A stretch of 63,384 nt of DNA, the filler included, from Licmophora abbreviata (Eukaryota), in NCBI GenBank assembly GCA_900291995.1. It is 10 parts of 10 records of this genome, joined end to end, with 100 filler letters (N's around TTAATTAATTAA, not from the genome) between each part and the next. Parts side by side here need not be neighbours in the genome. Positions count along the whole stretch, not along the records: positions 59,273 to 63,384 come from OLMU01002670.1; 9 more parts are not named here. One strand, 5' to 3'. The notes under the pieces were generated by a model. It had not been told where the DNA came from, ran no database searches, and saw only the letters and a program-made list of their open reading frames with translations. Shown one piece after another: positions 13,682 through 63,384 of the stretch (position 1 is its first letter; every line of letters begins with the position of its first letter). The position numbers were made by a program, and so were the translations under genes.

Positions 13682-14360
13682 ATGGCAAACAGGAGCATCC
13701 ATCCCGCATACCCGGCGAGTTACCGCCAGGGCGAGCAGCAGGTCGGTGGAAAACTGGGAATGGCGGGTACGAGTCTGCAGCTAGGAGGAGACAACGAAAC
13801 TCTGAAGAAACTAAGTCACCTTCACGTTGAAGAAACGAAAGTGGACTCCAAGGCTGCTAGGGAAGCAGCTGTAATGAGATACAATCAAGCCCGTGCTCAT
13901 GAAGTGAAAAAGACGACAACTGAAAAGGCACGTGAGGAAAGTGCTGGCGAACTTNNNNNNNNNNNNNNNNNNNNNNNNNNNNNNNNNNNNNNNNNNNNTT
14001 AATTAATTAANNNNNNNNNNNNNNNNNNNNNNNNNNNNNNNNNNNNNNNNNNNNAAGCTGGATTCCAAGACGGCTCGAGAGCTGGCCGTTGCGAAATACG
14101 AACGCTCCAAGGGCTGGACAGTGGAGGAGCAAATGAAGGCGAGCACTAACTCGACTCTGAAATCGACGGCTCAGCCGGTTTGGAAACTCGAAAAAATGGC
14201 TGAAGGCCGAGAGTGTACCGTCTCACCGGAAGACATACGGGACCCTGACACAGTGGCCGGAATGAAGTGCAAGTACGATGTGGATCTCGAAAAGATTGCC
14301 ACCGCAAAGGCTCTCAGGTATTTGGATAAGCACGACTACTCTGGCCATGGCATCGTGTAA
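13682..14360 (+). CDS. Hypothetical protein of about 190 aa spanning a scaffold gap, with an internal repeat
   Basis: ATG 13682 (MANRSIHPAY). Abutting 13954 to 14055 keeps the frame (..AGEL-KLDSK..). Repeat KVDSKAAREAAVMRY / KLDSKTARELAVAKY. Confidence 0.65.
13955..14054. other. Artificial scaffold spacer
   Basis: N44-TTAATTAATTAA-N44. Confidence 0.98.
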
Positions 14361-31774: not shown

Positions 31775-32409
31775 ATTTTCCAGTACAGCTCAGTCGTATG
31801 GTGCTTGAGCAATAGTAAGGCGCACTAAAGCCTCTTTCGTCCGAGTCTGTCGGTTCCAAGGTCGCAAACTCTGGGATTCGTGGACTAAAGAACATTAATG
31901 AGAGAGGATGGGCTCCCCAGATTTGAAATTGGCTTTCCCGCAAAATCAATGGCGGGGAGGACATTCGAACTACCTAGCAGGTTTGAAGTAGCAATTTGAC
32001 CAAAGCAACTGGTATGCAGTCAGCACGAAGTATTGGACGATGGGAATTGGGATTTGTCCGCGCGGGAACCGGCGCCACGCAGACATCATGCCATGCAAGC
32101 AAGACTGTCCTCATATCCGCCCTCCTTACATTCTTTTCAACCGCCACCTCAACAATGGCAAGAGATGAAGACCGGAACCAACTACAGTACCAGGTAACAT
32201 GGAGCACCTGCATGGTCACGAAATGGGCAGCGCAAACCCTTCAGACATGTTCGCTCTACTAAATACCAGAGCACCTAAGTAAACCAACTCGCTTTGAGGG
32301 AGTTCGTGCTCTCCGGCACAGCGGGCTTCTTCTTTGACCAGTACATTAACCCATACACTTCCAAGAACACACTCAACGCCTCCCATGTGTCGCTGACAAA
32401 TATTTTTTC

Positions 32410-34477: not shown

Positions 34478-34577
34478 NNNNNNNNNNNNNNNNNNNNNNN
34501 NNNNNNNNNNNNNNNNNNNNNTTAATTAATTAANNNNNNNNNNNNNNNNNNNNNNNNNNNNNNNNNNNNNNNNNNNN
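34478..34577. other. Artificial scaffold spacer
   Basis: N44-TTAATTAATTAA-N44. Confidence 0.98.
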
Positions 34578-36279: not shown

Positions 36280-36766
36280 TGTGGTGATTCAGAATCTCTG
36301 GGTCTCAAGTCTGAATAGACGAGTGCCGTCGTTGATGCGATTCGCGGCCATTGTGTCGCGATGATGATGTGGCCGGTTGTGAGAAACATCAAGTAGAAAT
36401 CTACAGGAGTTGTGTACTGCATGCGTGACGTTGGCAGAACTCTTTCCAAACACCTTTCTGGACCTCGTAGATCTCTTAGAGCTCGCACTTTGGTCATTGC
36501 TCCGCGCGAGAGACGCACCTCTCGCCAAACTGAAAACGCACACACGCAATGGCAAGAGGCCGCAACTTTGCATCGCCGACCACCTTTCTGCAAGCGCAAG
36601 ACTGTGTTTGACGCCCCTCACCACTCTCTGATAGCCCTGAATCACAACAGTGACGGTTGTGTGCGTTCGTGGCTTTCAAAACTCCTCACAACGCACATTG
36701 TTGGCACTGCATTGGTCAAGCATCTCTCGCTCGTAGAACTCACGTACAATCACTACCGCCACGATC

Positions 36767-38695
36767 ATGCCCCGCCGAGACCCCTTTCCCATGTCCTCGC
36801 CGCAGGCGCAGCGCCTTGCCGAATCCGTTGAAGGCGAACGAAGTGACGACTGGCACAACATGAACACGGAAACACAGGGTCCACGAGGAGCTGCAGCAGC
36901 TGCTGCCGGAGACGAAGACCGCGACCGCGAGAGCCTCATGCGTTCCAAGGGCAAAAAGAAGAAGCAAGCGACGGATGACATTTACGAACATGCCGATGCG
37001 ATCGACAGTGACGATGAAGACGACGAAGACGCCTTCTTTGATCGTCCCCTCTCGGCCTTGCGTGGATCTCCCATGGAACGGACCTTCGAGCGCGTCACCA
37101 GAACCCTCCAAAAGATCTACATTCGGCTCTACGGAGATCACCTGCCGCCGTCGGAGATGCTGCGCACGCTCTGTCTGGCGTCGACGCTCTTTTTCATGAT
37201 TGGCGGCTACTGGCTCCTGCGATCACTCAAGGATCCTGTGCTTACGGCGCTTTGTGGCGTCAGCGTCATCCCGAAAGCGAAGATGCTCAGTGTCGTCGTC
37301 GTTTTGGTCGTCGTGTCCATTTACAACCGTCTCTTGGACAGTGACATTGCTCGTCACAAGCTCTTTTACATTTTCGGATCCTTCTACTTTTGCATGTTTA
37401 CCGTCATCTCTTTTTTACTCATGCACGAAACCATTGGACTGCCCAATCAACGTCAGAGTCCCTCACGTCTCTTGGGCTGGATCAGCTACTGCACGATCGA
37501 GTCTTTTGGTAGTGTCATGGTCTCCTTGTTTTGGTCCTTTGCCAATTCCAACGTCACACTCGAGACGGCCAAGGCCAGCTACGGTGTCATGGTGGCGACA
37601 GCGCAAGTCGGCAGCATCATTGGTCCTACCATTGTCAATCGCTATGCCAACACCATGGGCGTTGCCAAGTGCTACTTGATTGGTGCCATGTGCATGGTGT
37701 TGCTCCAGGGAACCATGTACACCTACATTCGCTTCTACGGAGCCGAGGAACGTAATGCTGCGACAACTGGAGCACCGAAAAAGAAACAACAAGCCAACGT
37801 TTTGGAAGGACTCGAATTGTTCTGGAAGCATCACTATGTCAAGGGCATATTTGCCATCAGCTGTCTCTTCATGGTCGAAGTGACGATTGTCGATTACACC
37901 ATGAAGGTTCTGGCGCGGGACTACTTTGCGGAGCTGCATCCATGTGAAGCATCCATGAGCTGCTGGGATACAACGGGCGCTGGAGATCATGGCATGTCGG
38001 AAGATGCGACTGCAGGCTTCACGACCTTCATGGGCCTCTTTGGACAAGCCACCAACACGTTGTCATTCTTGCTGAGTTTGTTCGGAACGAGCGCCGTCAT
38101 TCGCTACTTGGGACTGCGCCTGACGCTCTTGCTCTTTCCAACACTGTGCTTGGGAGTCATCATCTTTGTTCGCATCCGACCGACTCTATACGTCGTCTTT
38201 GCCGCAATGATGATGCTCAAAGCAAGTTCGTACGCTCTCAACAACCCCACCAAGGAAATGCTGTACCAGCCCACGAGTACGGCCGTGCGCTACAAGGCGA
38301 AGAGTTGGATTGACATTTTTGGCGCACGCGGCAGCAAGGCTCTGGGCAGTGTCGTGACGAATGCCTTTTCGGATTCGGCTCAAAGTCTCATTGCCAATGG
38401 CAGTATTGTCGGTATGGCAGTCGCGTCGTTTCTAATCTGGAATGCTCGGTTCATGGGGAAAAAGTTTGAGGAATACACGGAAACGGGACATATCGTGGGC
38501 ACCGACGAAGGCGCCGAAATGGCAGCGCAAGTAGAAGAGCAAGTTCAAATGGCGCAATTGCAAAGTGAAAACAAGGATACGTCGTGTGCCATCTACGAAG
38601 ACGAGGAGATCGGACCGGAAGAGGAGGGACAGGAATCCGATGGTGGCGCGGAGGCAGACGAAGACGAGGAGTCTCCAGATGGGGAAGGACGGTGA
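36767..38695 (+). CDS. TLC/NTT-family nucleotide transporter
   Basis: About 12 hydrophobic segments; motifs [52 protein letters not shown]. Start may be 36767 or 36791. Confidence 0.9.
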
Positions 38696-40340: not shown

Positions 40341-41498
40341 TCATTTTCCCTCGTCATCCTCCGCTCCAAAGAACTTGTCATGAATTATCCGCGCTTGTTT
40401 CTGAAGCGCTCGTTTATCTTTCTTTTGCGCCGTCAAGTCTCGGATGTATCCACAAAAAGCCTTTCTGCCTGTTGATAAAGTAACCTCCTGAACACCCAGT
40501 TCGACTTCAATTTCCGATCCGTCCTTGCGCCGCGCTTTGACCTGCCGTTTGCGTCCAATGATGTGCTTTATCCCAGTCTCTTTGTAATGCTGCATGTAGG
40601 CAGCATGCTTGCTGGCATGTCCGTCACCGCAAATCATGGAGATGTTGCTTCCTAGGAATTCTTCACGACTATAGCCAAACATTGCACATGCCGCGTCATT
40701 GACGAGCTTGATAACGCCAGCTTCATCAATTTCCAACATGCTATCAAAGGATGCGTTGATCATTCCTTGAGCTAGTGCTTGACGTTCTTGTATCTCCGCC
40801 TCGTGCTGTCTGAGGAGCGTCAGGTCCTTGAGGAACCCACAAAAGTACCGCTTTCCGGAAGAAGCGTCCGAAATCTCTTGAATTCCCAATTCACAGGGAA
40901 ACTCGCTTCCATCCTTTTTCATCGCAAGAATCTCGCGTTTTCGCCCAATGACCTTTTTGATGTCAGTCTCAATGTAGTTCTGCATGTACTGGTCATGATG
41001 TTTCGCATGTCCTCCTCCGCAAATCATACCAAGGGAATGGCCGACAAGTTCGCTTTCTGAGTAGCCAAACAATTCCGATGCGGCCTCATTCGCAGTACAA
41101 ATGACGCCAGTCTCATCAGCGGTCAGTACAGGATCAAAGGCATGATCGACGACCTCCCGAACACGCTCGTGCTTACTGCAAATGTACGCCGTGTAGTACT
41201 TCTGCTGACAGCAGGAACAACACTGCAGAGTAGTCAGATTGATGTTCCGCTCTGTGCGTGTCGTCTTGCCATCCTTCATGACAACACGACAGTGTTCCAC
41301 GCTTCTAAAGTCCTTGTCGTGGAGCACGAGCAAGTCCGTCACGTGGAAAGAGTCCTTCAAAAAGTGATTTGCAGCTCCGTTCTTGTGCAGGACGGTGCCA
41401 TCGTCGGCGATCAAGATGGCTCGTTCCGAGGCTCCGTCCAGGACAGTCGAGAGCAGCTTGGCTGTCTCACACAAAACACAGGCCTCCGCAGATGCCAT
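40341..41498 (-). CDS. Multi-PAS sensor protein (one degenerate PAS plus two FixL-like PAS), no output domain
   Basis: Two repeats of D..G.I...N.AA..(L/M)FGYS..E..G.....I.....H..Y...Y..T.....IG..R......KDGSE...EL...E....F.G...DLT. Probable start ATG 41498. Confidence 0.9.
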   Translation of the reverse strand: MASAEACVLCETAKLLSTVLDGASERAILIADDGTVLHKNGAANHFLKDSFHVTDLLVLHDKDFRSVEHCRVVMKDGKTTRTERNINLTTLQCCSCCQQKYYTAYICSKHERVREVVDHAFDPVLTADETGVICTANEAASELFGYSESELVGHSLGMICGGGHAKHHDQYMQNYIETDIKKVIGRKREILAMKKDGSEFPCELGIQEISDASSGKRYFCGFLKDLTLLRQHEAEIQERQALAQGMINASFDSMLEIDEAGVIKLVNDAACAMFGYSREEFLGSNISMICGDGHASKHAAYMQHYKETGIKHIIGRKRQVKARRKDGSEIEVELGVQEVTLSTGRKAFCGYIRDLTAQKKDKRALQKQARIIHDKFFGAEDDEGK

Positions 41499-41840
41499 TG
41501 TGTGCAGTGAATACGAACAAGCCACGACGATGAGGCGCCGACAACAAAGAATCGTTCGGCGAGTGAGTCGCGACGAGTCTCAACGCGGAGAACACAGCGA
41601 GAGGCAACAGAGCACAGGTTCACGCGTGCGCGCGAGATGATCTCGTACGTATCGTATTTTTGTAGAGCTCTCGTCTCCCTTCAAACGAGCTCGCAAAAAT
41701 ATGAACGGCTTTACTTCGATGGGTAGCCGGTACTTCGCTCGAAGGGCCAGGAACAGCGCTTGCTGTATATTCATATGCTTTGCGTCTCTTCCAAATCAAC
41801 GAGGTTTTATATGTTTAAGATTGGTTCCGACTGTACATCT

Positions 41841-42404: not shown

Positions 42405-42504
42405 NNNNNNNNNNNNNNNNNNNNNNNNNNNNNNNNNNNNNNNNNNNNTTAATTAATTAANNNNNNNNNNNNNNNNNNNNNNNNNNNNNNNNNNNNNNNN
42501 NNNN
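42405..42504. other. Artificial scaffold spacer
   Basis: N44-TTAATTAATTAA-N44. Confidence 0.98.
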
Positions 42505-43362: not shown

Positions 43363-44978
43363 TTACCAGTAGGACATTCCTGCCTGACCATTCACATGTA
43401 TCCCCACCCCGCCTACTTCCTCGTCGCCTGGTCGCAACGTCGGTGGCCGCATGGTGAAGGCATCGGCGACATCCAACATGGACACCTTGGCGATCTGATA
43501 GAGCGGCATGAGTCGATAGGGTTCTTCAAACAGTACAGAAAGCTCGTCGAGTCCCAGCATGGCGTAGCCCACGGTTGTCGTAACGCATACCTGGGCGAGA
43601 CCGTTGAGTTGGGTTCCGAGCAACGCCATTGGAAGGAAGAAGAGGTAGAACATCATGAGGCGGGTACTAAATGCAACGTACACAGGTGGTGTTGGCGTGG
43701 ATCGGATTCGCTCTCCAACCATAATCACATTGTCGAGTTGCCTCAGATTGTCTTCTATGAGCCTGTGCTCTGTGGTGGATATTTGCTGTCGCTCGCTCAT
43801 GTCAAACATGATCTGCCGCAACCGCGCAATGATAGCCACGGGCTTCTTTCGTTGGCGAGCAACAAAGGAAGAGTCTGAGTTGGACGGTAGCATCGTGCGT
43901 AAGATGTCATCTTCGTCGGAATCGCGAAAGTGAGCTTTGAGTAGCCATGGTAGCAACGCAAGGTGTCGTGCTAGAAACAAGGAGAAAAACTCAGTTGTAG
44001 GTGCATCATCAAACGTGTATTACATACATACACTCGCAAGAGTCATCTGTGGAGTAAACCACACGTGATTTACTCACCTGCTAGAAGCCCAAGCTTCTTG
44101 TCTTTTGGGTAAATATATGTCGATAGTAGAAGGGCTGTGTCACGCGTCAGCAGGACAGCCTTTCCCATGGACCTTCTGCCTTCTTTGAGTCGGGTCAATC
44201 CTTGGTTGGATCTCAGGGTTTGGAGTGCGGCCACGAAGGTGGACACGAGTGACAGAGATGTCAACGGGATCTGTATTCGACCGAAGGCGCTCGGCGAACG
44301 TCCGAGTAGGGTTGCCACTATGGACCATGTTAGCAGCACAGACAGCTGAGGGAGTATCCGTCGCAAGAGTCGCGAGTTTGGAAGTCCACGAATGTATCGA
44401 AGGAATCTAAAGCGAGCCGAGTGCACAGCCCAGTCAGATTGTGTCCAATAATTCGTCAGTGTGAGCCGCCGCCGTCGAAACAATGCTATACACAAAATCG
44501 AAACAATGGGCAAAAGTGAGTTGATTTGTGGAACGTTTGAAAGTACTGTTGAGGGACGACCGAGATACTCACCGGGAATCTCTGGGTCGAGCTTGTCGCT
44601 TTTCAGATCTTTCAAGACGATTGCCACATCCTGAGAGAATTTATAAAGGTTGTCGTCAGCCTCGAAAGTAACGGCGTTGTCGCGACGGACGGCATTGTTA
44701 CGATTGATTGAGTCGTTCAGCAGATCGGGTGAGTCTGGCTGCTTTGCCGCCAATCGTAAGCAAGGTTTATGCAATCTCGAAGCTTTGGGAATGGGCCAAT
44801 GCAGCTGTGTTCTCAGGTACGTAGCCTGGAAAGAATCACAAGGACTTCTCAGAAGTAGAATGAAATTNNNNNNNNNNNNNNNNNNNNNNNNNNNNNNNNN
44901 NNNNNNNNNNNTTAATTAATTAANNNNNNNNNNNNNNNNNNNNNNNNNNNNNNNNNNNNNNNNNNNNGTCGGGAACAT
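43363..44978 (-). CDS. Bestrophin/UPF0187 (VCCN1/BST-like) anion channel, copy A, plastid-type presequence
   Basis: Exons 44978-[gap]-44573, 44485-44078, 43970-43363. Motifs W..H....RF, TLRSNQGLTRLKEGR, ERIRSTPTPPVY, LGLDELSVLFEEPYRLMPL; signal ends CDS-FQA. The start ATG lies across the gap (uncertain). Confidence 0.85.
44868..44967. other. Artificial scaffold spacer (within signal peptide of bestrophin copy A)
   Basis: N44-TTAATTAATTAA-N44. Confidence 0.97.
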
Positions 44979-45225: not shown

Positions 45226-46844
45226 CTACCAATACGATGGATCCGCTCCGTTACTACCATCGAAATCATCTATCCGCCCTTGATCATGATGATGGTTATG
45301 CCCAAGCATCGGTGGTGGCTCGCAAATGAACGCATCTGCCACATCCATCATGGAGCTCTTTGACAGCTGATACAGTGGCATCAGTCGAAATGGCTGTTCC
45401 AAAATGATACTGACTTCATCAAGTCCCAATACGGCAAAGGAGATTGCCGCAGTGACGCCAGTTGTGATATACCCATCCAGCTGCATTCCCAACAGCGCAA
45501 TAGGTAGAAAGAACAAGTAAAATAGAGTCAGACGGCCACTATGACTTGAGTAAAATGGCGGGATCGGTGCACCGATTATCCCATCACCCGTCGTGACCAC
45601 TTCGTCGAGGCCTTTGAGGTTTTGCATGACGAGCATCTGTTCGCTTTGAGAAATGAGCTGTCGTTCCATCATGAGCGACGTGATTTGACGTAGTCTCGCC
45701 AACACGGCAGTGGGCTTCTTTCGTTGACGCAATATATACATTGCTTCAGCATCCCATGGAAGCATGGTGCGCACAACATCGTTCTCGTCCGATTCACGGA
45801 ACTGTGCTTTCAATAGCCACATGTAAAGCGAGAGGTGACGAGCTGTATGCGTTGTAAATGCCCGATGGAGAACGAGTTTTCGTTAGCAAATTTGTAACAT
45901 CAGAACCCCATTGGCGTGCAATGACATCCGAACGCACCTGCCAGTAGTCCCAGAATCTTGTCCTTGGGGTAGACAAAGGAGGCGAGCAGCTGCGCCGTGT
46001 CGCGCGCAAGAAACGTGGCCTTTCCAAAGGCCAATCGCCCTTCTCCCAATCGACTGAGGCCTTGGTTACTTCGCAAGGTTTCGAGTGCAGCCACAAAGGT
46101 AGAAAGTAGAGAGAGTGTCACGAGTGGAAGGTGAATCATATCAAAGACTTTGCAATGCGCCTGCACCAACGACGCAAGCAAGGCCCACAGGGTCAAGACT
46201 GACAATTGAGGAAAGATTCTCCTCAAGAGTCGACTGCTCACAAAGGTCCGAGTATATCGCATATACCGCCATCGACTCTGGTGTCGCTTCCAGTCTTCCA
46301 AATTCCAAATTTTGGTAAATGAGAGTCGAACGCTTCGCATCATAGCTATTGTATTGAATGAAGTAAAATAGTAGAATGATTTGTCAGCATAACGACGATG
46401 CGAGGAGAGAAAGCATCACGATCTCCTTCAAACAATTACAACATACGATCTCCTACCTGGGATTTCCATGTCCTGATCAAATGGGTGAATTTCGTTGAGT
46501 ACTTTGTTGACATCCTGCTCGAACTGTTTGGCCGAGTCAATGTAAGAGCTCCCTCTAGTACTAGAAGACGTGAAGGCGGATCGAGTTCGGATCGAGCTAC
46601 GCTCTCCTTGATGTTCGGACAAGAAGGAGGGAGACTTGACAAAGAGACTCGGCCTACTCCATGAAGATCTTTTGGAATCCGGATGGCATGTACTTCCGCT
46701 ACGTGTTGACAATGATGGATTCCGCCTGCTTATGCTTCGTATCGCCCGTTCCAAACGGAAGGCGTTGCTTTTTGGAAGACAAAAACTTCCACATGCAGCG
46801 ATCGTCCAGAGAGCCACCAAGAGAGACCAGTGGCATGTGAACAT
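45226..46844 (-). CDS. Bestrophin/UPF0187 (VCCN1/BST-like) anion channel, copy B, plastid-type presequence
   Basis: Exons 46844-46457, 46345-45938, 45842-45226. Motifs DWKRHQSRWRY, TLRSNQGLSRLGEGR, APIPPFYSSHSGR, LGLDEVSIILEQPFRLMPL; signal ends CGS-FCL. Confidence 0.87.
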
Positions 46845-47029: not shown

Positions 47030-47129
47030 NNNNNNNNNNNNNNNNNNNNNNNNNNNNNNNNNNNNNNNNNNNNTTAATTAATTAANNNNNNNNNNNNNNN
47101 NNNNNNNNNNNNNNNNNNNNNNNNNNNNN
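47030..47129. other. Artificial scaffold spacer
   Basis: N44-TTAATTAATTAA-N44. Confidence 0.98.
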
Positions 47130-50282: not shown

Positions 50283-53200
50283 CTAGCTATCGTCTGTCAC
50301 GTGCTCCAGCATTCGTTTTGCCGTAGCGTGATCTTTTACGACCGCTGCAATGGCTGGATCGTCGTCAGCGAATCCTGCTTCCTTGTAAAGTGCAACGGCT
50401 TCGTCCCACACTTGAAGTGCCGCTTTAAAATCCCCTCGATTGCCGAGCAGCATCCCCATGTGGGAGAGAGTCAGAGCAGCTTCGCACGGCTGCTGCGTCT
50501 CGATCGCCTTTTCGTAGCTGTTCATGGCGTCGTCGTAATTCTTGCGCCGATCCTGTAAGGCACCGATGAGAAAGTGCACGTGCCCGACTGACGGATCTCC
50601 TTTGCCAAAGCTCGCAATGCGTCGGCGCAACGCCTCCTTAAAAAGCGTCATGGCTTCCTTGTATCGATCTTGCCTATGAAAATAAATGTGGAGGACAATA
50701 AATTTGTTGGACTGAAAGGCACGAGGCACCTAGAAAGTGACAACGTTGCATGCGCGGGAAGCTTACCTTGCCAGTAGACTTGCCAGATTGCATAGGATCG
50801 TGGCGATTACATCGTGACTCTCACCAAGCAGTGTCTTGAATAGCTTGAGAGCCTATTGGAGGAGATAAATAGAAGAACGTAAGCGCGACAGGGTTACGGT
50901 TAGGTTCAATTGGCTGGTCTTCGTCACGTCCGTCGAGCCCAGAGTACATACCCTATGATAGTTCTTCAAAGCCTTAGAGTCCTTGCCCGAGCGATCGTAA
51001 TATGTCGCCAAGTCCAGCAATGACCCGGCAAATATTTCATAATCTTCTTCAAGAGCCAGATTCTTCACTTCCTCTAGGGTAACGTCGCCGTGGAGCTTAC
51101 TTTCGAAGATACGGACAGCACGCTCGTAACACCGACCCGCCTTTTCCAAGCTGCCTTTGTCTTCAAAGATGCCACCAAGATTGTCCAGACACTTCGCCAC
51201 TTCAACATGGCTTTCTCCTAATGTAAGCTTGTAAATTCGAATCGCGTCAATGTAATACTGCATGGGTTTGACCTTGCGAGATGACCGACGGCTGGCCAAC
51301 AATGCACCGGCAAGTTGGTATAGAGTATTGGCCACTTCCACGTGGTCGGGACCGTGCACCAAGAGTCGGATGCGTCGGCACTCGCGCAAGCAGTCGACAG
51401 CGAGCTCAAACTCAGAGCGCGTGTTGTGCAACAGGCCTAGTCGAAAGAGTACTTCTGAGACAGCGATATGGTCGCGTCCCAGGTGCTGCTGCCGTCCCGA
51501 AAGTGCACCTTGGAAGCAAGACAGTGACTCGTCCAGATTCTTGTTCGCTTCTGAGGAAGGAGCATGGAGAAAGATCTGATTAGTCTACGAAAAACGCACA
51601 TGACGAGGTATACTTCTGTTCCCCGCAGCGAGCGTACCGTGAATGCAGCCAAGAAAGAATAGAGAGTCTGCAATTATAGTCAGGTTTCGTCCACCCCTCG
51701 CCTCACGATGGGCGGACAATGCTGCTTCCAAGTGAGGCTTGGCTTTCTCGTATTCATTCCAGAAGAAATAAACTTTTCCGACAATGTATGAAGAGTCACC
51801 AGTCCGCTCATCAACGTCTCCGAAGTGAGTCCTTCGTATCACCAGCGCCCGGGACGAGCAAGAGAGCGCTTTTTCCTTTTCGTCGGTCATAAAATGTATC
51901 TCTGCCATAGAATGGTTCACTTCTGCGACCTTCCAGTGGTCTTTTCCAAGCGACTCTTCGTACATGTCCATCGCTGATAATAGGTCGAAGACTGCCTCGT
52001 ATGAGCGGCCAACTCTTTCGTAGGCAGCTGAGCGCAACCGAAGAACATCCCCGATCTTTTCGTCCTGCTCATCACCTGACACTCCATTGATAATCTGGCG
52101 TAGGCCGTGTGCCCGGATGAATTGGATAAGTGCATCCTCATTTCTTCCCTCGGAGAAAAATAGCATGCCCTTCGAAGTGCGAGCCTCTGCGATTATTTCA
52201 TTCTCAGGGTCGCCTGCATCGATGCACAACTCAATTGCTCGGTCGAGACAGAAATGCGATTTCCTTGTCGAGAGAAGTGCTCCATGGATGCGTCCAAGAC
52301 ACAAGTACGATCGCGCCACATCAGAGTAACCGACGTCTCCCAATAGCGGCTTGCGAATACGTAGACACTCTTCATAACACCGTAAAGCTTTCCTACGATC
52401 GGTCAGGTGGAACTCATAGAGCTCACCCAAATTAATCATAGCCATCGCAACGTAAATATTGTCGTCTCCGTGAAGAGAGCGGCGTAGACGGACACATTCC
52501 CTCAGGGACCGTTCCGCTTCACTGAAATCGTTGCATTTGAGGTACTGGAAGAATAAATAAAGTGTTAGAAACAATTGAAGCAATGACGTTCGTGCATTAC
52601 GGTCCAAGCGACTCACCAGTTCACCTGCAAGCCCAAGCAGGACAGCAAGCTCAATATCATCCGACCTTCTTCGAATGACTAGCGCCTCTTCACACCATTT
52701 TCTAGCTCTCCTGAAATCTGACATGCGGCAATATGACTCCGAGAGCTGAATCATAACGTCAGCAGCTTGAACGTGGTCTTCTCCAAGCTCAGTTTTTACA
52801 ATAGCTAGAGACCGCCGCAAGTACTCGATGGCACTTTCAGGGTCACCAGTCTCGACTAAGCAGATCCCACAATTTAGCAGAGAATTTCCAACGGACAGAT
52901 GTGTCTCCCCGTAACACTTCTTATAGAACCCAACGGCCTCTTGATAAGATTTGAGCGCATCGCGGTATCGCTCTGTAAGACTCTGTAGAGTTCCTTTCTC
53001 ATGAAAGAGATATCCCATCATTTTTGAGTCACCGTATGTTCTTGCAAGCGAAAGTGCCGCATCAAAACATGCCATGAGCTCTCGGTCTTCCCGGCCCTCC
53101 ACTTTCCCTCTTCCTTTCAGAGAAAGCATACCAATACGAATGGCTTCTGAGTAGTGCGCGAGACTCGATTCATGCTTTCCGAGATGGTACTCTACCTGGG

Positions 53201-56200
53201 CTAGGCACCAGGTACTTTCGCAAACATTCCAATCATTTGGTCCGAAGTGTACTTGGCGGATACGCAGCGCTTCGATAATGTTGAGATGGGCGTCCTCGTA
53301 TTGCTTTGAATTGCAATGACAAAAACATTGATAGTGAAGTGCATCGCCAAGAATAGGGCTATCAGGGATGAAGCTTTTACGTCGTAGAGCCTTTAGAGCA
53401 GACTCAAACAAAGTCTGCGCCCCCGAGAAGTCAAGGGTTGCAATATGCACTCGACCCAGCGCTACGGTGCACTCGGACACATCTGGATGGTCAGCACCCA
53501 AAGCTTTGCTAAGCCTATCGCGAGCTGACTCAAGATATTTTCGCGCATCATCAAAATTGCCAAGTCCGTTGAGGGAGACCATCCCCATATGCAAACGAAC
53601 CCTCGGGAGCATCTCACTTCCGTCATTCCCAGAAGCACTGACCAGAAGGTCCTGGCACTCTCCAAAAAACCCCATTGAATCACCGTAATTACGTCGCTTG
53701 GCTGCCACTTGACCCTTTGCACACAGTTCACGAGCCGACTGTGAGTATACGGCAACTGATGAATAGCACAGGATGAATCCTGGAACTTACCAGTAGGAAC
53801 AAAGCGCTGGCCCTATCTACCCCGCCGTCGCCACAGTCTGCGTGGATTTTGAGTGCTGCTTGAAGATTGCGCTGTGCATCACAGTAGTTGCTCATCTTGA
53901 AGTGAACCAGACCAAGATTATAGAGCGTTTTCGATAGCAGGTGATGCTCGTTTTTCTCGAATACACTTTCTTGTAGCTTCAGGCAGTCTTTGAAGCATCT
54001 TGTTGCATCGATATACTCTTGCTCCTGGAGATGAAGCTCCCCCATCTGCAAAAGTATGTCAACTTCTTCAAGAGTCCCAAGCATTCTAGCACCGCCCAAT
54101 TTTGCCGTCATTATTTCTTTATGACAAAGAAGGGCATTCTTCGAGTCGCCAGATGCAGCGAAAGCTCGCCCCAGATACCGCCGCGCTTCCATTACAGCAG
54201 GATGATAGTCACCCAACTTGTTCAAGCGAAGATAGAAAGCCTCATTGAGATGCGAAATCGATCCCTCTGGATCGCCTCTCTCATATCGAGCAGCCCCCAT
54301 CGTGAAATTCAGATCAGCGATCTTCAAGTGATCAGGGCGTAACACCTCACGGTACACCGTGAGGGCAAGCTCACTACAAATTAGCGCTTCGTCAAAGCGT
54401 CTATTCTGAAACATTATAGCTCCGAATGAGGCGATTGTCGTCGTAGTATCACCCTCGCTACATTCGAGAAATGAATTCAGATCGTTCGTGAACTTCATCA
54501 TTCCTGTGATTGACAGGCGTCCGTTTGAGCTCATTTCATTCTTCGCAATATGGCACCCAATATGTGATTCGAAAATCCGCACAGCGGCAGCAAAACATTC
54601 TAGCGATTTTGCCCCGTCGCCTTGAAGGCTCAGTGTATCGCCCAATAGAGAAAGGGCTTCCCCAACTGCTAGATTGTCATACCCCAGCTTTTTCCGGCGT
54701 CGTTCGAGGATATCGCGATAACATCGTGCAGCCTTCTGGTAATCACCCCGTGCTTTGTGATTCGATCCGATGCACTCCACAGCATCTTCTAGTAAGGGAC
54801 CCCACTCAGGCAGTGAGTCATTGATGAGCCTCAGGACGTCATTGCAGTGTTTCATCGAGGCATCAAACATCCCGAGATTTTTCAAGACGACCCCTAGACT
54901 GAGTTGGGCGGCAGCCCGTCCCGTAACAGGCCCCTCCCTTCTAAGAAGTAGAACCTCTTCAAAGCAGACCAACGCAAGCCGTAAGTCAGATCGAGCCTGG
55001 TGAACAAGTCCTAGGCAGTAAATCGTGTCCGCAATGACGAGGGGGTGCACGTCTTGAAGTTCTCTCAGTATAGAAAGCGCTTCATTGAGGACCGAGAACG
55101 CATCGTTGTAGTCATCCAAGCTCATGAGACAGCTGCCAAGATTCTGAAGTGTGGATGCGATCTCGAAGCCGTGCGTACCATCCTTTCCACGTTGACGCAC
55201 GAGAACATCTCTGTAAATCAAGGAAGCTTTCTTGTAGTCTTTCAGTCGCACAAAAGTGCTAGCAAGTTTTTGTAACAAATCAACCATTTCAATCGAGAAA
55301 ACGAGTGGAGAGTCTCGGACCAGACGTAGCAAGCTTTCGTAGCACACAACAAGGTGGTTGTCTCTCTCTTCCTGTTCTTCGACACCGAGACAGATCTCAC
55401 CGTTGCGATCCTCCAATATCTGGGTGGCCTGCTGAAACAAATCCCAACAGCTGCTGTACTTTCCCATCTGGTAGCTCAGACCACCAATCCGAGTGAGGAG
55501 CTGGCAATACTCCATTGATGATTTGGCCAAAGAATGACCAAAAATTATTTGCGCTTCTTCATAACAACGAAATGCCTCAGCAGGGTCCCCCATACTCTCA
55601 AGTGCGCTTCCCTCTCCAATCAAGGCTCGCGCCACCGCCTGATGATGCAGCCCATGAACGGCTTTCATCCTCAGAGCACATTCCTGAAAGATACTTCTGG
55701 CTTCTTCAAAACTTTTCAGTTCAGCGTGCGATATCGCCATGGAATGTAGAATGATGGCGATTTCTTCTCCATACTCTCCGACATCTGCTCGCTTAATTAT
55801 CAGTGCCTGTTCAAAAAACTTCAAGGCCCGACGGTGGTTCCCGAGCTTCTGTTCAACGATTGCAACATTTTCAAGCGTAGTGCCGACGTCTGTATGACTG
55901 CTACCCAGGCGTTCGACTCTTGCGTTAAGAGCGTGCTGAAATGAAGCCAATGCCTCTCGAAAGTACCCCGACTCGCACTGAACAAGGCCTAGACTGAAAG
56001 AGACTCCGGCTGCATTGAGGCTATCCATTCCTGTGGTTGAATCTATAGCCGCAAATGCCCGTTGAAGGGCGAGAATCGAGTCCTTCAGTGAACCCAGTTC
56101 TCGTAGCGTTGTCCCCAGGAGCGATTGAGTCTCGACAAAGAGTTGGCCTTTACAAACATTGTTGTATGCCTGGATTCGACCACATTCATTGAGCAGAGGT

Positions 56201-59200
56201 AGCGCATCCAAGAACTCGCCACTATCTACGTGAAGCTCCGCGAGTGCAAGCAGCGATGATGCTACTTCGAGATTGTCCTCGCCAAGGCACTCTAATCTGT
56301 GTTTGAGAACTTCTTGATGCAAACGCCTTGATCGTTTGGAGGATCCTGTGGCCCTTAGGGCTTTTGCTAGTCCGTGTTTGATCACGAAAGGCAGCATGCC
56401 GTGGTTGGACTGACATCTCTCTAGAGCGTCACAAAATAATTGAATAGCCGCTGGAAAGTCGCTTTCATGGGAAGCCTTCTCGCCAAGGGAAAAGAGGATC
56501 GAGGCAAGGAGTGGGTTTGTAGAGCATCCACTTGCCCGTCCTATCCAGTCACGAGCTTGTACGAAAAAGCCACAAGCTCGATCATTCTCTCCTCTCTCTT
56601 CGATTAGAATACCAAGAGAGAAGAGACAGGCTGCAACTTCCTCATTTTCGACAACAGTCTGACATTGAAAAATGAGAAGGGCTACAAAGTGACAGTTCTG
56701 CTGAGCAAGCGCGGCTTAGGTTTCGAATGATCCAATACTGTGTCCTGGACTTACCCTCTTGATAGAAACGCTCGGCAGATGTAGGTTGATTTGTTGAGAC
56801 GAGCAGCTGGCCAAAGTTGTAGAGCGTGCGCGCTATTTCGACATGAGAATAGCCCAGAACTCTCGACTTTGTGAGAAGGGCCTCCGCGTAGAGAACTTTG
56901 GCGTCATCTGTGCGCCCATCGTCGAAAAGCATGCAGCAATATTGTTTCTTGAGTTTGCGGCACCCAGCTCGTCACAAATTTGCAATCGAAGTCGTAAGCT
57001 CTCCTGGTAGCACTTCAAGGCTTTTGACAGCTCGTCTCTGTGAGTGTGGATGTTCCCAAGAGTCGTGAGGACATTGCTCAACTCCTTCTGGTTCATTGCG
57101 TTCATGGACCGTCCAAGTTGCAAAACGCTACCCAGGGAATCAATGGCTTCGTCGTACTGCCCAAGTTTGTCATGCGCGATCCCCTTTTGAGCAAACATTG
57201 ACAACCACAAATGAGTAACCGACACACTTGCATAGAAAAATCGTTATGTTCACAAACCCTACCTTCTTCTCAAGTACCTCTCGAATGGCAAGCTCAAAAT
57301 CTTCTGGTCGTTGTCGGAACAGGGTAAGAGCGCGGCCGTACCATTCCACTGCTGTCTCAAAGTTACCCTGAAGATACTCGACATTTCCCAGGCAGGTCAT
57401 ATTTTCGGCTACCGCTATGTTTCCCATGCCGAGCGCTTCGACCGATATTCGGTGGCATTCACGATGACAATCGGCCGCACGCTGCATCTGTCCTGTCTCG
57501 GAATGGAGATTCCCTAGGTTGAATAAGACATCGGCAACGCTCAGGTGATTCGACCCATACATAATGCGCAGGGCATCAAGCACTTCATTGAAACTGCTCT
57601 CGGCCTTGTCAAGATAACCAAGGGTAGCCTCTAACCTTCCGATCCGATGCAGAAGGTCGATCTCCTCTTTAGTCGTTACCCCTTGACTCTTGTCCTCGCG
57701 TCGGACAACAAGTAGGGCTGAATAATAGCATTGAAGAAGCAGTTCGGTTTCANNNNNNNNNNNNNNNNNNNNNNNNNNNNNNNNNNNNNNNNNNNNTTAA
57801 TTAATTAANNNNNNNNNNNNNNNNNNNNNNNNNNNNNNNNNNNNNNNNNNNNTTCATGTTATTGAAATCCAGTTTTGGGGAGATATCTACCGCATCATAT
57901 TTACCACTGGCGGTTTTCTCGAAAGACTCGCGTGACTTTGCTTGAAGGATTTCGACAGCTCGACTGAGATGCACGTTTGCCTCGCTCCCTGAACCGTTCG
58001 TCCAAATTAACGACCGTGCAAGGCTCATGTGCAGAAGCGCCTCGTCTGTCGTGAACACTGAGTCGTCAACCAAAGAGTCGCGGAGGTTTAACCCATGACG
58101 TAGCGCTTGGATGCATGGATGATAGTCTTGACCATCAAAAAAGACGCGTCCCATATTAGCCAAGGCTTCAGCAGCTGCCAAGTTCTCTCGTCCATGATGG
58201 GACACGCAGTCCTGTAGACAGCGCGAGAAAACGTTCAAGGCCTCATCCAGCTTACCAATCTTGTAATAACAAGTTCCAAGTAGGTTTTGGAGTGAGAGGC
58301 TCTCAATACTCTCACCCTCAGATGATGCAAGACATTGATTCGTTCGATCCAACTGACCCGAAATAAAACTATCCAGCGCGTCAACAGGGTTCGACCGGGT
58401 GTTAGCGCCACTGCTGTGTGCATCATGGTTTAAAAGACACCCCTTCAAGCCTGATCGTATCAAGGAAAAACAGTTAGAATCGGTTGACATACAACCACGT
58501 ATCAAGAGAAATGACGTACTTTCGATTGCTTCAATGAAACTCCCACATTCAATCCGGCAGCAAGCGAGCCTCCGGTTGAGTCGCGTGAACAAAATTTGCA
58601 CATAAAGTCGCTCTTTCCCGCCTTCTTTCGATCTATGCCAGCCCTGATACTCTTGTGCAAGCGGTTTCAGCAACCTCAAACCCTCGGAAAATTTTGGCAC
58701 AGCTTTAACAAACTGTCGTTGGGTTTCAAACATCTCCCCCTGTGAAAGAAGAATTTTCGAGAGGAGCAGCAACAGCTGCCTATCATACTGGAGACTGTTG
58801 ACAATGCCTTCATCGAAGTGAGACTTTGCGATTCGAAGTGCTTCGTTCAAGTGTTGCATCGCCGCTTCAAAAGAGCTGTCGGGCTCAGAGACATCCCTAC
58901 TCGACCAAATAGCAACCGCAAGGGCGCGATGGGTCTTGGCTACGTCAACGTGATCGCCCATTATAGCCAACCGAATATCGAGACTCTGTTGGAACCTTCT
59001 CTCTGCTTCACAGACCATCTGAGATTTGGCTCCGCCTCGAAAGGAGATGACACCCAAGTTATAGAGAACTTCCGCTGATTCGGCACTGAGCCTATCGCCG
59101 TAGCGCCCTCTGAACGAGATGCATTCATGAAGATAGCACTTTGCCATCTCGTCGTCTTCATGTGCCAATGGGNNNNNNNNNNNNNNNNNNNNNNNNNNNN

Positions 59201-62200
59201 NNNNNNNNNNNNNNNNTTAATTAATTAANNNNNNNNNNNNNNNNNNNNNNNNNNNNNNNNNNNNNNNNNNNNCCAATGGGGGGCATAGATCAAACTCATC
59301 ATCGACCATCAGAAGAGTTGCAAGTCTTGCGCAAGTTTCCTCTTGCCCCCCTACATCGGTTTCAATGGACAAGATTTTGGAGATACTGAGCGACTCGCTG
59401 AACGCATGTATAGCCATCTTCCGTGGGTCCGAAAATTCCGGAAAACCTGCACCGCCTTCCATGAGGGATGTGTATATGCTTTGCTGTACACAGCCGATAT
59501 TGAACAAAATGCTTGCGATAATAGCATGGTGTGGCGTTCCGAGATTGGACTCCATGAGCTGCTTCGCCTCAAGGAAACTCTTCAATGCCGACTCGAATCT
59601 TCCAGATCGGGCTTGAACATTACCCATACGAACGAGCAAATCCTCTCTCGCTAAATGGAACTCAGACGTCTCCTCCGAAGCGATTGGGCCGCTTTCCGTC
59701 GTCGTGTACAGGAGCTCTTGATAACATTCCACGCAAGCTCTGTTATGAAACGTCTTTCCCATTAAGTCGAAATCCATCACTTCATCGAACTGCACATTCA
59801 GTTCCGATAAAGGATTGTAGCCTTCGAGAATGCTTGCAGCTGTCTCGAGTGAGGCTCGCCACTTATGTGCAAGAGAAGATTCTCGCTCTACACCCGAAAG
59901 GCATCTGTACGCTTCACCAGATGCCAAGATGACTTGGCCCAAGGTAATACCACCAAGACTGACCACTGACTTCGACTCGGGCACGCCAATCCGAGCGATT
60001 TTCTTTCCCATTGACGCATAGATCTGTGTTGCCCCCTCAAATAAGCGACGAGAACGTTCAAGTTTCAAATCTCCGCGGCATATTCTTCCTAGCGATGTCA
60101 TCACCGCTGCAATGGCGAAATTGGTTGAAATGTCTGCTCCGCGTCGAGTTGACACGGTTTCGAATGTGTTCAGAGCACTCCGGAGGTGTGTAGACGCAAG
60201 AGATCCCTTGTTGGCTTGAAGCAAAGCCGTCCCTATTGCCTGCTCACATCGGGCAACTTCCAAATCTATGTCGTCCGTTTCATGGAAACATTTGGCTTTC
60301 ATCTCGTTCAGTACCTTCAATGATGAATCAAAGCAGGAGAGAGCCCGTTCCGTTTCTGCCCTTCTCATACACACGATTCCTAAGAAAAACGACACTTTGT
60401 AGAAACGAAGACTGGATTCCGCGTCTTGATTGTTCTTGTCAAGCCCTGTGTCAAAGTGATCCCTTTCATTTTTTGCTGTTTGGTTCAAGAAGCGCATAGC
60501 TTCTTCCCAATCAGATGAGGAGTCCGAGTAGCGCCCTAGATGAAAGTGAAGTCTACCAAGTCGAATGAGATCTGAAACCAGGTCAAAATGAAAATCATGT
60601 TCTTTGATCAATGCACTAGCCCGGATCGAACTATCGGCGTTCGACAAAGGCTCAGACGGAGAGCTGTCATTCTCGAGCAATCGCTTGCGCATCTTTATCG
60701 CTTCTTTCGTAAATGACCTGCTTTTATGTTCCGTGTGAAAGCGTAATCGCCACAAAGAGTCAACGGATGCGTCGCACTTCTTTTCATCCGAAAAGAGCAG
60801 CCTTGCTTGACGTCGAATTAGCTTGCGACCCACATCGGATCCCCACAGGAAATAGGCATCCGCTATTTTCGATAACAGGTCACAAACGAGAGGGTGGATC
60901 TCTTGTTTTTCATTCTGCTGGGAAACGAAGTCGTCGTCATCCATATCGTAGAAATTGCGATCGATCTCAGTTGCTTGAAGGTGCTTTCTCATATTTTCAA
61001 GGGCCGACAGAAAAGTATCGACAGCTGCATCATAGTCGCTGAGCTCTACCAGACAAATGCCAAGCGACCGATGAACGAGAGAGACATCTTTGCCACTGAA
61101 TGAAATCGATGAAAGTGACGCAGCCTCAGTCGCGACTCCAATCGCAGATTCTGTATGACAGATGCCGACATTTTTCATAGCAGTCAACGTCTCCTCTAGA
61201 GCCTCGCGAGCGTCATTCCACCGTTGTTGCTCCATATAGATAATTGCGAGACTCTTGAGGGAATGAATGACGGCCAAGTGCTTCTTCTTGGCATGCCTTG
61301 AATACAGCAACAATGACTCCTGGTAAGCATCTAGCGCCCTAGATTTGTCGCTAAGTTTTTCCTCAAAGCAGTAGGCCAGAGTAGTGGCGGTATCGGCAAG
61401 GTAAAGCTCAATCGTGGAACATGCTACATGGATGTGTTCGACGCTGATCGCATGTCTGGGGGCTGAAGCCCGTCGAGCACTATCCTCGTCGGAATATGCT
61501 GCCGTGTCCCCGTTGATATTCGCTTCCACTAAGAAAAGCACCTTCAACGCTGCTCGATACGCACCCCGGGCGTTATTGTACGCGTTGATTTCTATCGTTG
61601 TTGAGTTGGAGTCGTACCCGGGGATCGGGCGCAGGTAGGAGAAGTTCGAGGACGGAACAGTCAGTATGTCAACTCTGCTTTGTTCGTGCCGACCAAGATT
61701 TGTTCCAAGCAAGTGAAAAGCCCTGCCAATCTCCAAGCACGCAGACGAGAGAAGAGCAAGCTCCGATTTCTTTTGGGAGGGCTTTTCAAAATCCGCTTCC
61801 CACTCAATAGAAGAAGATGTCTGCTCTGGTTTCACAAAGCCGGCCCCTCGCATCTTTCGCGCAAGAGCTGTCTCCAAACAACCTTCAAGGGACGAATGGA
61901 CGTCCAGGTAGTACTTCGACCATGGCCGTCCGGGTGTAGCATTCTGTAGCAGCGCCCCAAACAAGGATTCAAGCTCTTCGATATGAACCACCACTCCATT
62001 ATAAATTCCAAATGCTGACAATCTCTTGTGGATGAATTCAACATCATTGAACACAGCCAAGAGGTTTCGGTACATCTCCGTGCATGTTATGCAGCTGCCG
62101 AGAACAAGGGAACTTTGCTGCCAAGCGGCACGCAAGACAAAATTGGGCAAGAATCGCAAAATATAAATCATGCTGAGTGACATCTCACGGGCCCCTGCCG

Positions 62201-63384
62201 TACTCTGTAGGGCCGGCTTTGCTGGCTGCGAAGTATCCGACAAATACTCCGGCAGAATGTGATTTGCAAAAATTACACACCAAGACACCCGACGGGTTCC
62301 AGTAAGCAGCTGTTCCGAAGCGCGGCGTTGTCGGATATGCTCCTGCATTGATGGGTGAAGCATAATCTCCTCTTCCTCTAGCACATAACAGGTAGACTTG
62401 TCTTCTCCCGAATGGTCTTTCTTCTCTTCGTCGTGCATATCTCCGTACAGCAACTCTTCTAGTTCCTCTCTTTTCTGCTTGGTAAGCTCGACTTCCTTCT
62501 TGACGCGTTTTCCCACTAGAGGAGACTTTGATCCCGTGGAATGTTCGTCGGTGTCTCCTTCAGAACTACTTGGTTCCATCGAGTATCGATCAAATGAGCC
62601 TAGCTCTGGACTGACCAGCGCCTTCACAACAGCATCAACATCATTGTTGATATCCTTCTCTGGTGTCAATACTGTCGTCATGTGTTGTTGATGGCTAACA
62701 CTCCTTGGTGCGACAGAACTTGGCACTGTTGCATCTATCAACGATAATTGTGAACCGGCCCCGAGCCCCGCGGCTTTGTCTGCATGGAGAGAGAACGCCG
62801 ATGCGGACGACGATATCGAGTCGTTCAATCTCTGACTGGCGTCAGGAAGAAGAGGGTTAGGTTTCCCAGACCGCTCTGAGTCCTGTTCCAACAAAACGCA
62901 GCGAAATAGAATTCTTGCAATGTCTAACGGGACGTACGGACTCAGCTCGACGTCTGATGAAGATGAAGATAGATGGATGACGTCAATAGGTGGCGCATCT
63001 TCGTCTGCGCTTTTCATTTCACTTGGAGAACTCAAAAAATCAAAAGGAGAATCATGAAACACCTCCACATAGGCGTCTAGACAAGTGCGAAGTTTGCTCT
63101 GGAAGGCGGCAATTTTTTCAAGATTTCCGTCGAATTTATCAAAGGAAGCAATCAGCGTGGCAGTATCCAAATCTTCCGCATCCAACTCAGGCTCGTCACC
63201 GCCTTCATCCTGGAGATAATGGTTTCGGGCAGCAGTCCAAAGGCGATCCTGCCAATTGACCTTGCCGTCTGAGTTCGTAGTTCTATCATCGATACCGGCG
63301 CCACTCGCCATCGTCTGAGCGGATTCGTTGCCAGCAGCTCTATTGATATCCCCGCCCGGCTCCCCTGACCCTACCGATTCTGTC
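50283..63384 (-). CDS. Giant TPR protein (at least ~4,080 aa; kinesin-light-chain/nephrocystin-3-type 42-aa repeats), possible degenerate NB-ARC-associated domains; 5' end open
   Basis: Segments 63384/63311-59273, 59172-57853, 57752-57263, 57183-56755 (1-nt frameshift ~56933), 56681-53791, 53714-52617, 52544-51638, 51550-50952, 50852-50767, 50673-50283. All seven introns are GT-AG and frame-consistent. Repeats such as LGSSHTDVGTTLENVA, LGEDHVQAADVMIQLS, HGPDHVEVANTLYQLA. Confidence 0.85.
57753..57852. other. Artificial scaffold spacer inside TPR gene (direct abutment is in frame)
   Basis: AACATGAA + TGAAACC reads N-M-N-E-T-E-L-L. Confidence 0.95.
59173..59272. other. Artificial scaffold spacer inside TPR gene (flanks overlap by 8 bp)
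   Basis: CCAATGGG ends the left contig and starts the right contig; merging reads DLCPPLAHEDDE. Confidence 0.95.

Follow-up and report, generated by a model that had tools for sequence, protein, structure and literature searches.

Apaf-1, Dark, CED-4 and the bacterial NB-ARC-TPR and NB-ARC-WD40 STAND ATPases (PF00931, PF21296, PF17908) share the order winged helix, HD2, repeats, and the same order is predicted for the giant tetratricopeptide repeat (TPR) protein analyzed here, which is encoded in a 63,384-nt stretch of the Licmophora abbreviata genome (assembly GCA_900291995.1; the whole stretch is hereafter called the window). A nucleotide switch is the defining trait of STAND proteins and receptors of the nucleotide-binding leucine-rich repeat type (NLRs). 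PMC12177489 describes Arabidopsis NRG1C as consisting only of a winged-helix domain (WHD) and leucine-rich repeats (LRRs) and as outcompeting its full-length relatives for activated EDS1-SAG101, and a preprint (bioRxiv 10.1101/2021.01.27.428547) presents it as a truncated competitive inhibitor that sequesters the activating EDS1-SAG101 complex. NB-ARC-TPR candidate receptors are reported in brown algae (Ectocarpus; PMC3341825) and an NB-ARC-containing TPR protein, Thaps3_22882, in Thalassiosira pseudonana (PMC5599023). As is proposed for our protein, they join STAND parts to TPR arrays, and they come from stramenopiles; by their descriptions, they carry NB-ARC, whereas the giant TPR family does not. 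A literature search on diatom NB-ARC, TPR, NLR and STAND proteins, of partial coverage, found no description of the giant TPR family.

We read the giant TPR protein, with a probability of roughly one in two, as a conserved protein that descends from an Apaf-1-like STAND-TPR protein but lacks the NTPase, composed of a WHD-like part, HD2 and a giant TPR array. Artificial N44-TTAATTAATTAA-N44 linkers connect the ten contig pieces that make up the window, and the head of the protein lies in the last piece (59273-63384). There, a minus-strand open reading frame (ORF) extends between the window end (63383) and the linker at 59272, and its translated part (59217-63383) comprises 1,388 residues. The original prediction held that the frame was open upstream, and it does continue for 24 codons beyond the first ATG, as far as the window reaches. 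Motif mapping on the translated ORF recovered all of the motifs on which that prediction of an NB-ARC-like head was built, in the proposed order and no more than 1 nt from the proposed places (Table 1). The low-complexity inserts said to separate them were also recovered: AlphaFold2 gave a predicted local distance difference test score (pLDDT) below 50 in five stretches (residues 92-120, 169-216, 250-265, 296-310, and 359-375, numbered from Met 63311).

A phmmer search of 1.84 billion representative proteins with the 536-aa N-terminus matched 11 proteins (E 3e-66 to 7e-4), and a search with the TPR region added a twelfth homologue, P0022; this TPR-part search returned only 2 proteins. In the 12-sequence alignment, each member keeps whichever motifs its sequence spans, always in the same order, with fragments and N-terminally cut gene calls showing only those within their span. 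The order begins with a low-complexity N-terminus bearing [PA]WW[IL]..h...EG, followed by W.ERLW..AR.HY, F+..L..C..AYV.VFH and PYVPL..A+.LF; continues with SPEL..F+.Y.V, LLYGDM, E.E.[IV]R[LI]R and Y.LRY.P.F.LRA; and ends with D..FI..RL...G...G...H and CLE.GR.LH.LG..LG+, after which the TPRs start. This recurrence across homologues argues that the head motifs are conserved family features and not chance resemblances. The closest orthologue is represented by two gene calls, P0004 and P0002, apparently on the same 19.5-kb contig, and BLASTP similarity to P0004 begins only at the W.ERLW motif. The longest homologue quoted, P0006, has 4,361 aa. A homologue search with the N-terminus (near lengths) or the family alignment (longer lengths) found no protein, and neither the window protein nor P0004 had a relative in a search of metagenome contigs.

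The [PA]WW[IL] motif, more fully [PA]WW[IL]..h...[EK]G[LWY]h..DTS, is a short conserved element lying 60-280 residues ahead of the W.ERLW helix in the ten homologues that retain this region, where it lies at residues 63 (P0003), 177 (P0004), 43 (P0005), 554 (P0006), 489 (P0007), 22 (P0008), 259 (P0010), 93 (P0011), 77 (P0012), and 66 (P0022). In the L. abbreviata gene the motif, if present, would fall beyond the window end.

Profile comparison provided the evidence for HD2. APAF1_C (PF17908) regions gathered from cyanobacterial genomes, 17 and then 38 sequences, served as hhalign targets for the family alignment. The 17-sequence target gave a score of 31.0 (P 2.3e-3, 54 columns) and the 38-sequence target a score of 35.8 (P 5.9e-4) with the whole family alignment, while the HD2 block alone reached P 1.6e-4 and a probability of 51% against the deeper target. 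The helical part YILRFLPNFVLRA ... LLAVFNDVEFIHKRL paired in the expected register with the cyanobacterial APAF1_C (HD2) domains, and this register was constant: Y.LR..P.F.LRA aligned with Y.L..L..HL, and LL..F.D..FI..RL..G with LL.DFDFI.AKL..G. None of 100 column-shuffled controls reached a score of 31 (mean 13.0, standard deviation 2.0, maximum 21.0), and the reversed target scored 14.3, with P 0.43 for the deeper one. Cross controls were likewise without signal (WHD block against the HD2 target, P 0.66-0.9; HD2 block against the WHD target, P 0.29-0.31). The proposal that the region after the 'MHD' site resembles APAF1_C was upheld by hhalign in the register put forward and by fold matches over the WHD-HD2 region, and we hold with moderate confidence that an HD2-like domain homologous to APAF1_C follows the WHD-like part.

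Structure prediction from the 12-sequence alignment with AlphaFold2 yielded a head model with a mean pLDDT of 63.6 and a predicted template modelling score of 0.66, in which the helices and a small sheet were confident and the inserts disordered. Among the 50 matches listed in a fold search with this model, 15 belonged to STAND or NLR proteins, the alignment falling on the WHD or on WHD-HD2. They included (scores in brackets) an ADR1 complex, 8zwa (7.9), the STAND-TPR protein 6mfv (7.8), Apaf-1, 1z6t (7.3; 208 aligned, chain residues 356-571), NRG1A (7.2), a wheat resistosome (7.2), 8bob (6.9), taken as MalT from its entry title, ZAR1 (6.8), NRC1 (6.7), and 3j2t (6.6; 185 aligned, root mean square deviation 4.3, chain residues 363-553), together with Dark (residues 347-672), NLRP9, WRR4A, CED-4 (6.4), and MLA13. 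In these matches the aligned part of the chain begins at residues ~345-376, the start of the WHD by the domain limits of Apaf-1. Residues 1-345 modelled alone (pLDDT 62.9) matched winged-helix domains broadly: the T7 RNAP N-domain (7.1), MukF (6.9), JetA (6.8), ADR1 (6.5), NRG1A (6.4), TubR, MarR-type regulators, ORC2, Dark (5.8), and NRC1 (5.8). STAND proteins made up 11 of the 50 entries listed for this part. The front part is accordingly modelled as a winged helix, and structure alone does not establish the NB-ARC type. Of the original claim of an NB-ARC winged helix, the fold therefore stood, but not the specificity, for which hhalign gave P 0.29-0.64 and generic domains tied. The best local WHD pair, YVPLDIARILFR with PIPEAVLQTFWE, was in the register first proposed, but at P 0.64.

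At the site corresponding to the MHD motif, the AlphaFold2 model places MLHPSMQEHIR after the wing, as strand E313-318 followed by helix H320-337, as in NB-ARC domains. The claimed motif itself did not survive the alignment: the window protein alone has His there (1 of 10 aligned members), whereas eight members have Arg and P0002 has Asn, the family consensus being E-x-E-[IV]-R-[LI]-R. A non-conserved His would fit a module that no longer holds ADP.

No NTPase domain was found. The original observation that no P-loop is visible in the window was correct, as the Walker A pattern [AG]xxxxGK[ST] did not occur in the 1,388-residue ORF. Searches of Pfam and NCBIfam gave no passing NB-ARC, NACHT or AAA family in the window protein, where Pfam detected TPRs only and NCBIfam nothing in the head. 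On the C-terminal side there was likewise no NTPase, the downstream ORFs of the gene containing TPRs only. The further original suggestion, a P-loop NTPase lying upstream, found no support in the ten homologues whose sequence continues ahead of the module (P0003-P0008, P0010-P0012, and P0022): their 75-630 upstream residues showed no Pfam family and no credible Walker A and consisted of acidic or Ser/Arg-rich low-complexity sequence. The pattern matched only twice among the homologues, at residue 83 of P0005 (low-complexity) and residue 1293 of P0011 (within the TPRs). Ahead of the winged-helix-like domain, no HD1/ARC1 helical lid was detectable, and the homologues have low complexity at that place. 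With no nucleotide-binding domain (NBD), no HD1 and no MHD His, the giant TPR protein is by definition not an NLR and should not be filed as one. The term 'pseudo-NLR' comes close to the evidence, which does not extend to an 'NLR-like receptor'.

A weak Pfam match to AAA_15 (E 0.05-0.1) was seen at 62331-62420 on the minus strand (residues 297-327), within an E/K-rich stretch (LEELLYGDMHDEEKKDH...). We considered it as an ATPase remnant and set it aside as a compositional artefact of that stretch.

Several observations weigh against descent from an Apaf-1-like protein. The hhalign probabilities were only 12-51%. None of the Pfam models PF17908, PF00931, and PF21296 matched any of the 12 aligned sequences, even with the cut-off at E<=10, a level at which only chance matches appeared (AAA_15 at E 0.05, Cnd1_N, KIND, and SLC52), and hmmsearch of the 12 family proteins with the cyanobacterial HD2 profile gave scores near 0, with the best match falling within the HD2 region in five of the nine proteins that gave any. 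When a full NB-ARC-to-HD2 alignment of 5 sequences was used in hhalign, only the LL.DF motif paired (P 0.29). The WHD block did not match 7 (P 0.56-0.64) or 24 (P 0.29) cyanobacterial NB-ARC WHDs significantly, and the front part matched generic winged helices with scores equal to or above those for NLR WHDs. Foldseek found no PDB match at E<=1e-3 for either the head model or the model of residues 1-345; sequence and profile searches of the PDB returned no STAND protein, with chance-level matches only (bL27m and Rpo4); and the ESM Atlas gave no usable match for the whole head or residues 376-536. An NTPase exon upstream of 63384 is excluded in this gene by homology only. Lastly, the function that we propose below is inferred.

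Three other explanations were weighed. The head could be lineage-specific, combining a generic winged helix with a helical bundle and having no STAND ancestry; its resemblance to STAND proteins would then be due to convergence or chance, and it would front a giant TPR scaffold. The generic winged-helix matches and the silent Pfam models speak for such an origin, and the constant HD2 register and its shuffled and reversed controls speak against it; we consider it somewhat unlikely. A split STAND system, in which NBD-HD1 is a separate polypeptide, perhaps encoded just upstream, that docks in trans on the WHD-HD2-TPR protein, appears distinctly unlikely. Split arrangements do exist, as in the cyanobacterial HD2-first ORFs L016 and L021, which are overlapped upstream by a STAND NTPase ORF, and the conserved winged-helix-like domain and motifs suggest a retained interaction surface. 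However, the ADP-clamping His is conserved in no more than the one aligned member in ten, and the 35 other ORFs of the window that were scanned contained no NB-ARC, NACHT or STAND NTPase, only midasin-type AAA_5, in pieces that need not neighbour the gene.

A complete NLR-like receptor, for which the gene would carry an NB-ARC P-loop domain and possibly an effector domain upstream of the window, seems highly improbable. The open frame would allow it, upstream exons can be missed by gene calls on metagenome contigs, and Thaps3_22882 provides a diatom precedent (PMC5599023). Against this stand the NTPase-free upstream sequences of the ten homologues, two of which (P0006 and P0007) have 490-630 continuous low-complexity residues and similar MxDPP starts, while several others begin only 20-90 residues before the [PA]WW[IL] motif. 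The unconserved MHD His, the missing HD1/ARC1 and the start of the STAND fold matches at the WHD point the same way.

Under our preferred reading, descent without the NTPase from an Apaf-1-like STAND-TPR protein, the head of this small, conserved eukaryotic family would correspond to the back half of a STAND module of the Apaf-1/NB-ARC type. An insert-rich winged-helix-like domain would come first and an APAF1_C (HD2)-like domain second, with a KLC/NPHP3-type TPR solenoid of great length behind them. Both the nucleotide-binding domain and the HD1 lid would be gone, and the ADP-clamping His is not conserved, which would leave no nucleotide-driven switching. Without a switch the protein could only bind, and the TPR array with its WHD-HD2 stalk would most likely serve, by likeness to NRG1C, as a non-enzymatic scaffold or as an adaptor competing for and sequestering a ligand. 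A more far-reaching version, which we regard as unlikely, is that this is an old conserved 'headless' Apaf-1-like family of marine algae that lost the ATPase, kept the WHD-HD2 stalk and giant TPR sensor, and acts in trans with a STAND NTPase or as a decoy tuning the diatom NB-ARC-TPR cell-death or immune machinery. Because NB-ARC-containing TPR proteins are reported from brown algae and T. pseudonana, stramenopiles may plausibly have a full-length ancestor or partner.

Comparison with the known systems revealed both likeness and divergence. Apaf-1-type STAND proteins gave the best fold matches, and their HD2 motifs (Y.L..LP.H. and LL.DF.FI..KL) pair with ours at the profile level; unlike them, the giant TPR family lacks NBD, HD1 and Walker A/B, has Arg in place of the MHD His in most members, has a winged-helix domain cut by four disordered inserts in the window protein, and has no Pfam model reaching threshold in the head. 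NRG1C, an N-terminally truncated helper NLR, is the closest functional analogue: it keeps the WHD and repeat sensor without the NTPase, as our protein does with its WHD-like part and TPRs. NRG1C has LRRs and arose recently, as a truncated paralogue within a gene cluster of plants, whereas the giant TPR family is conserved to ~25% identity, has HD2, TPRs and N-terminal motifs of its own, and extends up to ~4,300 residues. The repeat type of KLC/NPHP3-type TPR proteins (TPR_12, TPR_10, and TPR_NPHP3) also fills the C-terminal 85-90% of the giant TPR protein, but those families differ in the head, which is a kinesin-binding coiled coil or an NPHP3_N NTPase. Plasmid comparators found by tblastn with the TPR segment were CHAT-TPR and TPR proteins only; the NB-ARC matches on those plasmids, which fell in NACHT/HEAT, CHAT/GUN4 or short proteins, were left out of the comparison.

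Cyanobacterial APAF1_C-WD40 ORFs also have HD2 at the N-terminus of a repeat protein and no NTPase in the same ORF, the PF17908 match starting <=103 residues from the preceding stop in 23 of 38 ORFs. They differ in having WD40 repeats and no winged-helix domain and, in L016 and L021, an overlapping NTPase ORF upstream; such HD2-first ORFs may be split or frameshifted full-length genes. Seven of them (L014, L016, L018, L020, L021, L025, and L027) are overlapped at the 5' end by an ORF on the same strand in another frame, which in L016 and L021 carries a STAND NTPase (NPHP3_N, AAA_16, and a TANC1-type lid). A frameshift, programmed recoding or the splitting of a gene could account for the overlap. 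L015, L019, and L023 have no adjoining same-strand ORF of >=90 aa in the 1.4 kb upstream and are candidates for NTPase-less HD2-WD40 proteins.

The TPRs predicted to follow the head were confirmed, with Pfam matches to TPR_12, TPR_10, TPR_1, and TPR_2 from about residue 680 of the first ORF (TPR_12 at E 8.8e-21), so that the C-terminal TPR array of the STAND-TPR architecture is present. The gene spans two linkers (59173-59272 and 57753-57852). An 8-bp sequence (CCAATGGG) is common to both pieces at 59172/59273, and 4 bp are common at 57752/57853. In tblastn, the homologues P0022 (2,268 aa) and P0002 aligned collinearly with the window from 63290 to 56723, through both linkers; the pieces therefore belong to one correctly ordered gene that is truly very long. 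A small frame change lies near 57170-57243 within the continued array. The TPR-only ORFs directly downstream probably belong to the same gene, for a total of ~4,200 aa, a second TPR gene being possible. Short near-identical contigs occurred in sequencing runs, mostly marine metagenomes, 7 of the 8 runs listed matching part of the stretch with shares of <=0.23 and no RNA run being among those listed. The four runs examined held 151-346-nt contigs only, with no joints and no loose ends, and a single 175-nt contig extended 77 nt beyond the window end. For the remaining linkers the neighbourhood of the pieces is unproven, and ORFs or 'operons' read through them need a collinearity check.

Table 1. 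Coordinates of the giant TPR gene, its head motifs and the linkers, counted along the window; residues are numbered from Met 63311.
Feature	Position	Strand	Remarks
Upstream in-frame codons (24, before the first ATG at 63311)	63312..63383	-	Open to window end
Winged-helix-like domain, residues ~17-345	62277..63263	-	Split by four long disordered inserts
W.ERLW	63237-63254	-	Conserved motif, winged-helix-like domain
F+..L..C..AYV.VFH	63057-63092	-	Conserved motif, winged-helix-like domain; LRTCLDAYVEVF
PYVPL..A+.LF	62904-62933	-	Conserved motif, winged-helix-like domain; VPLDIARILF
SPEL..F+.Y	62583-62612	-	Conserved motif, winged-helix-like domain
LLYGDM	62436-62453	-	Conserved motif, winged-helix-like domain
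E.E.[RM]L[RH]	62331-62363	-	Conserved motif; 'MHD-like' strand and helix (MLHPSMQEHIR)
APAF1_C (HD2)-like helical domain, residues 376-536	61704..62186	-	hhalign and fold matches
Profile-aligned HD2 core, residues 380-451	61959-62174	-	With YILRFLPNFVLRA and LLAVFNDVEFIHKRLSAFG
YILRFLPNFVLRA	62127-62165	-	
LLAVFNDVEFIHKRLSAFG	62007-62063	-	
HIEELE	61968-61985	-	
CLE.GR.LH.LG	61704-61739	-	Conserved, end of HD2-like domain
First part of TPR array (TPR_12/TPR_10/TPR_1/TPR_2)	59280..61703	-	Pfam; collinear with P0002, P0003, and P0022
TPR array continued past linker 57753-57852	56723..59171	-	Collinear with P0022 residues 1730-2229
TPR-only ORFs (995, 733, 243, and 148 aa)	50286..56715	-	Directly downstream; TPR families only
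Linkers	1087-1186, 13955-14054, 25139-25238, 34478-34577, 42405-42504		N44-TTAATTAATTAA-N44
Linkers, continued	44868-44967, 47030-47129, 57753-57852, 59173-59272		N44-TTAATTAATTAA-N44

The other ORFs of the window encode pentatricopeptide repeat proteins, midasin-type AAA proteins, a TLC ATP/ADP transporter, a mitochondrial carrier, Mak16, bestrophins, a double-PAS protein, and an F-box protein. Three consecutive minus-strand ORFs at 26912-31789, with midasin-type AAA_5 and AAA_lid_5/7, are pieces of Rea1/midasin separated by frame changes or introns. The TLC-type transporter ORF lies at 36737-38692 on the plus strand and the ORF with two PAS domains at 40344-41579 on the minus strand; both types are typical of plastid-bearing algae. 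Three Bestrophin_2 ORFs on the minus strand (43366-44019, 45229-45882, and 45903-46415), in two neighbouring pieces, are tandem paralogues or fragments of them. The gene content of the window indicates a eukaryotic nuclear genome and is compatible with a plastid-bearing alga.

For annotation, these results carry a warning that motif-level resemblance to NLRs in giant TPR proteins does not equal an NLR. If our reading is true, a motor-less stalk of a WHD-like domain and HD2 with a long TPR sensor can live on its own outside plants. If the 'headless' version is true as well, the family would be a protist counterpart of the principle seen in plant NRG1C, and motor-less NLR derivatives would be a recurrent and stable solution. 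To our knowledge, hardly any receptors are known for the cell-death and pathogen responses of diatoms, and the giant TPR protein would offer a concrete candidate regulator or scaffold for them.

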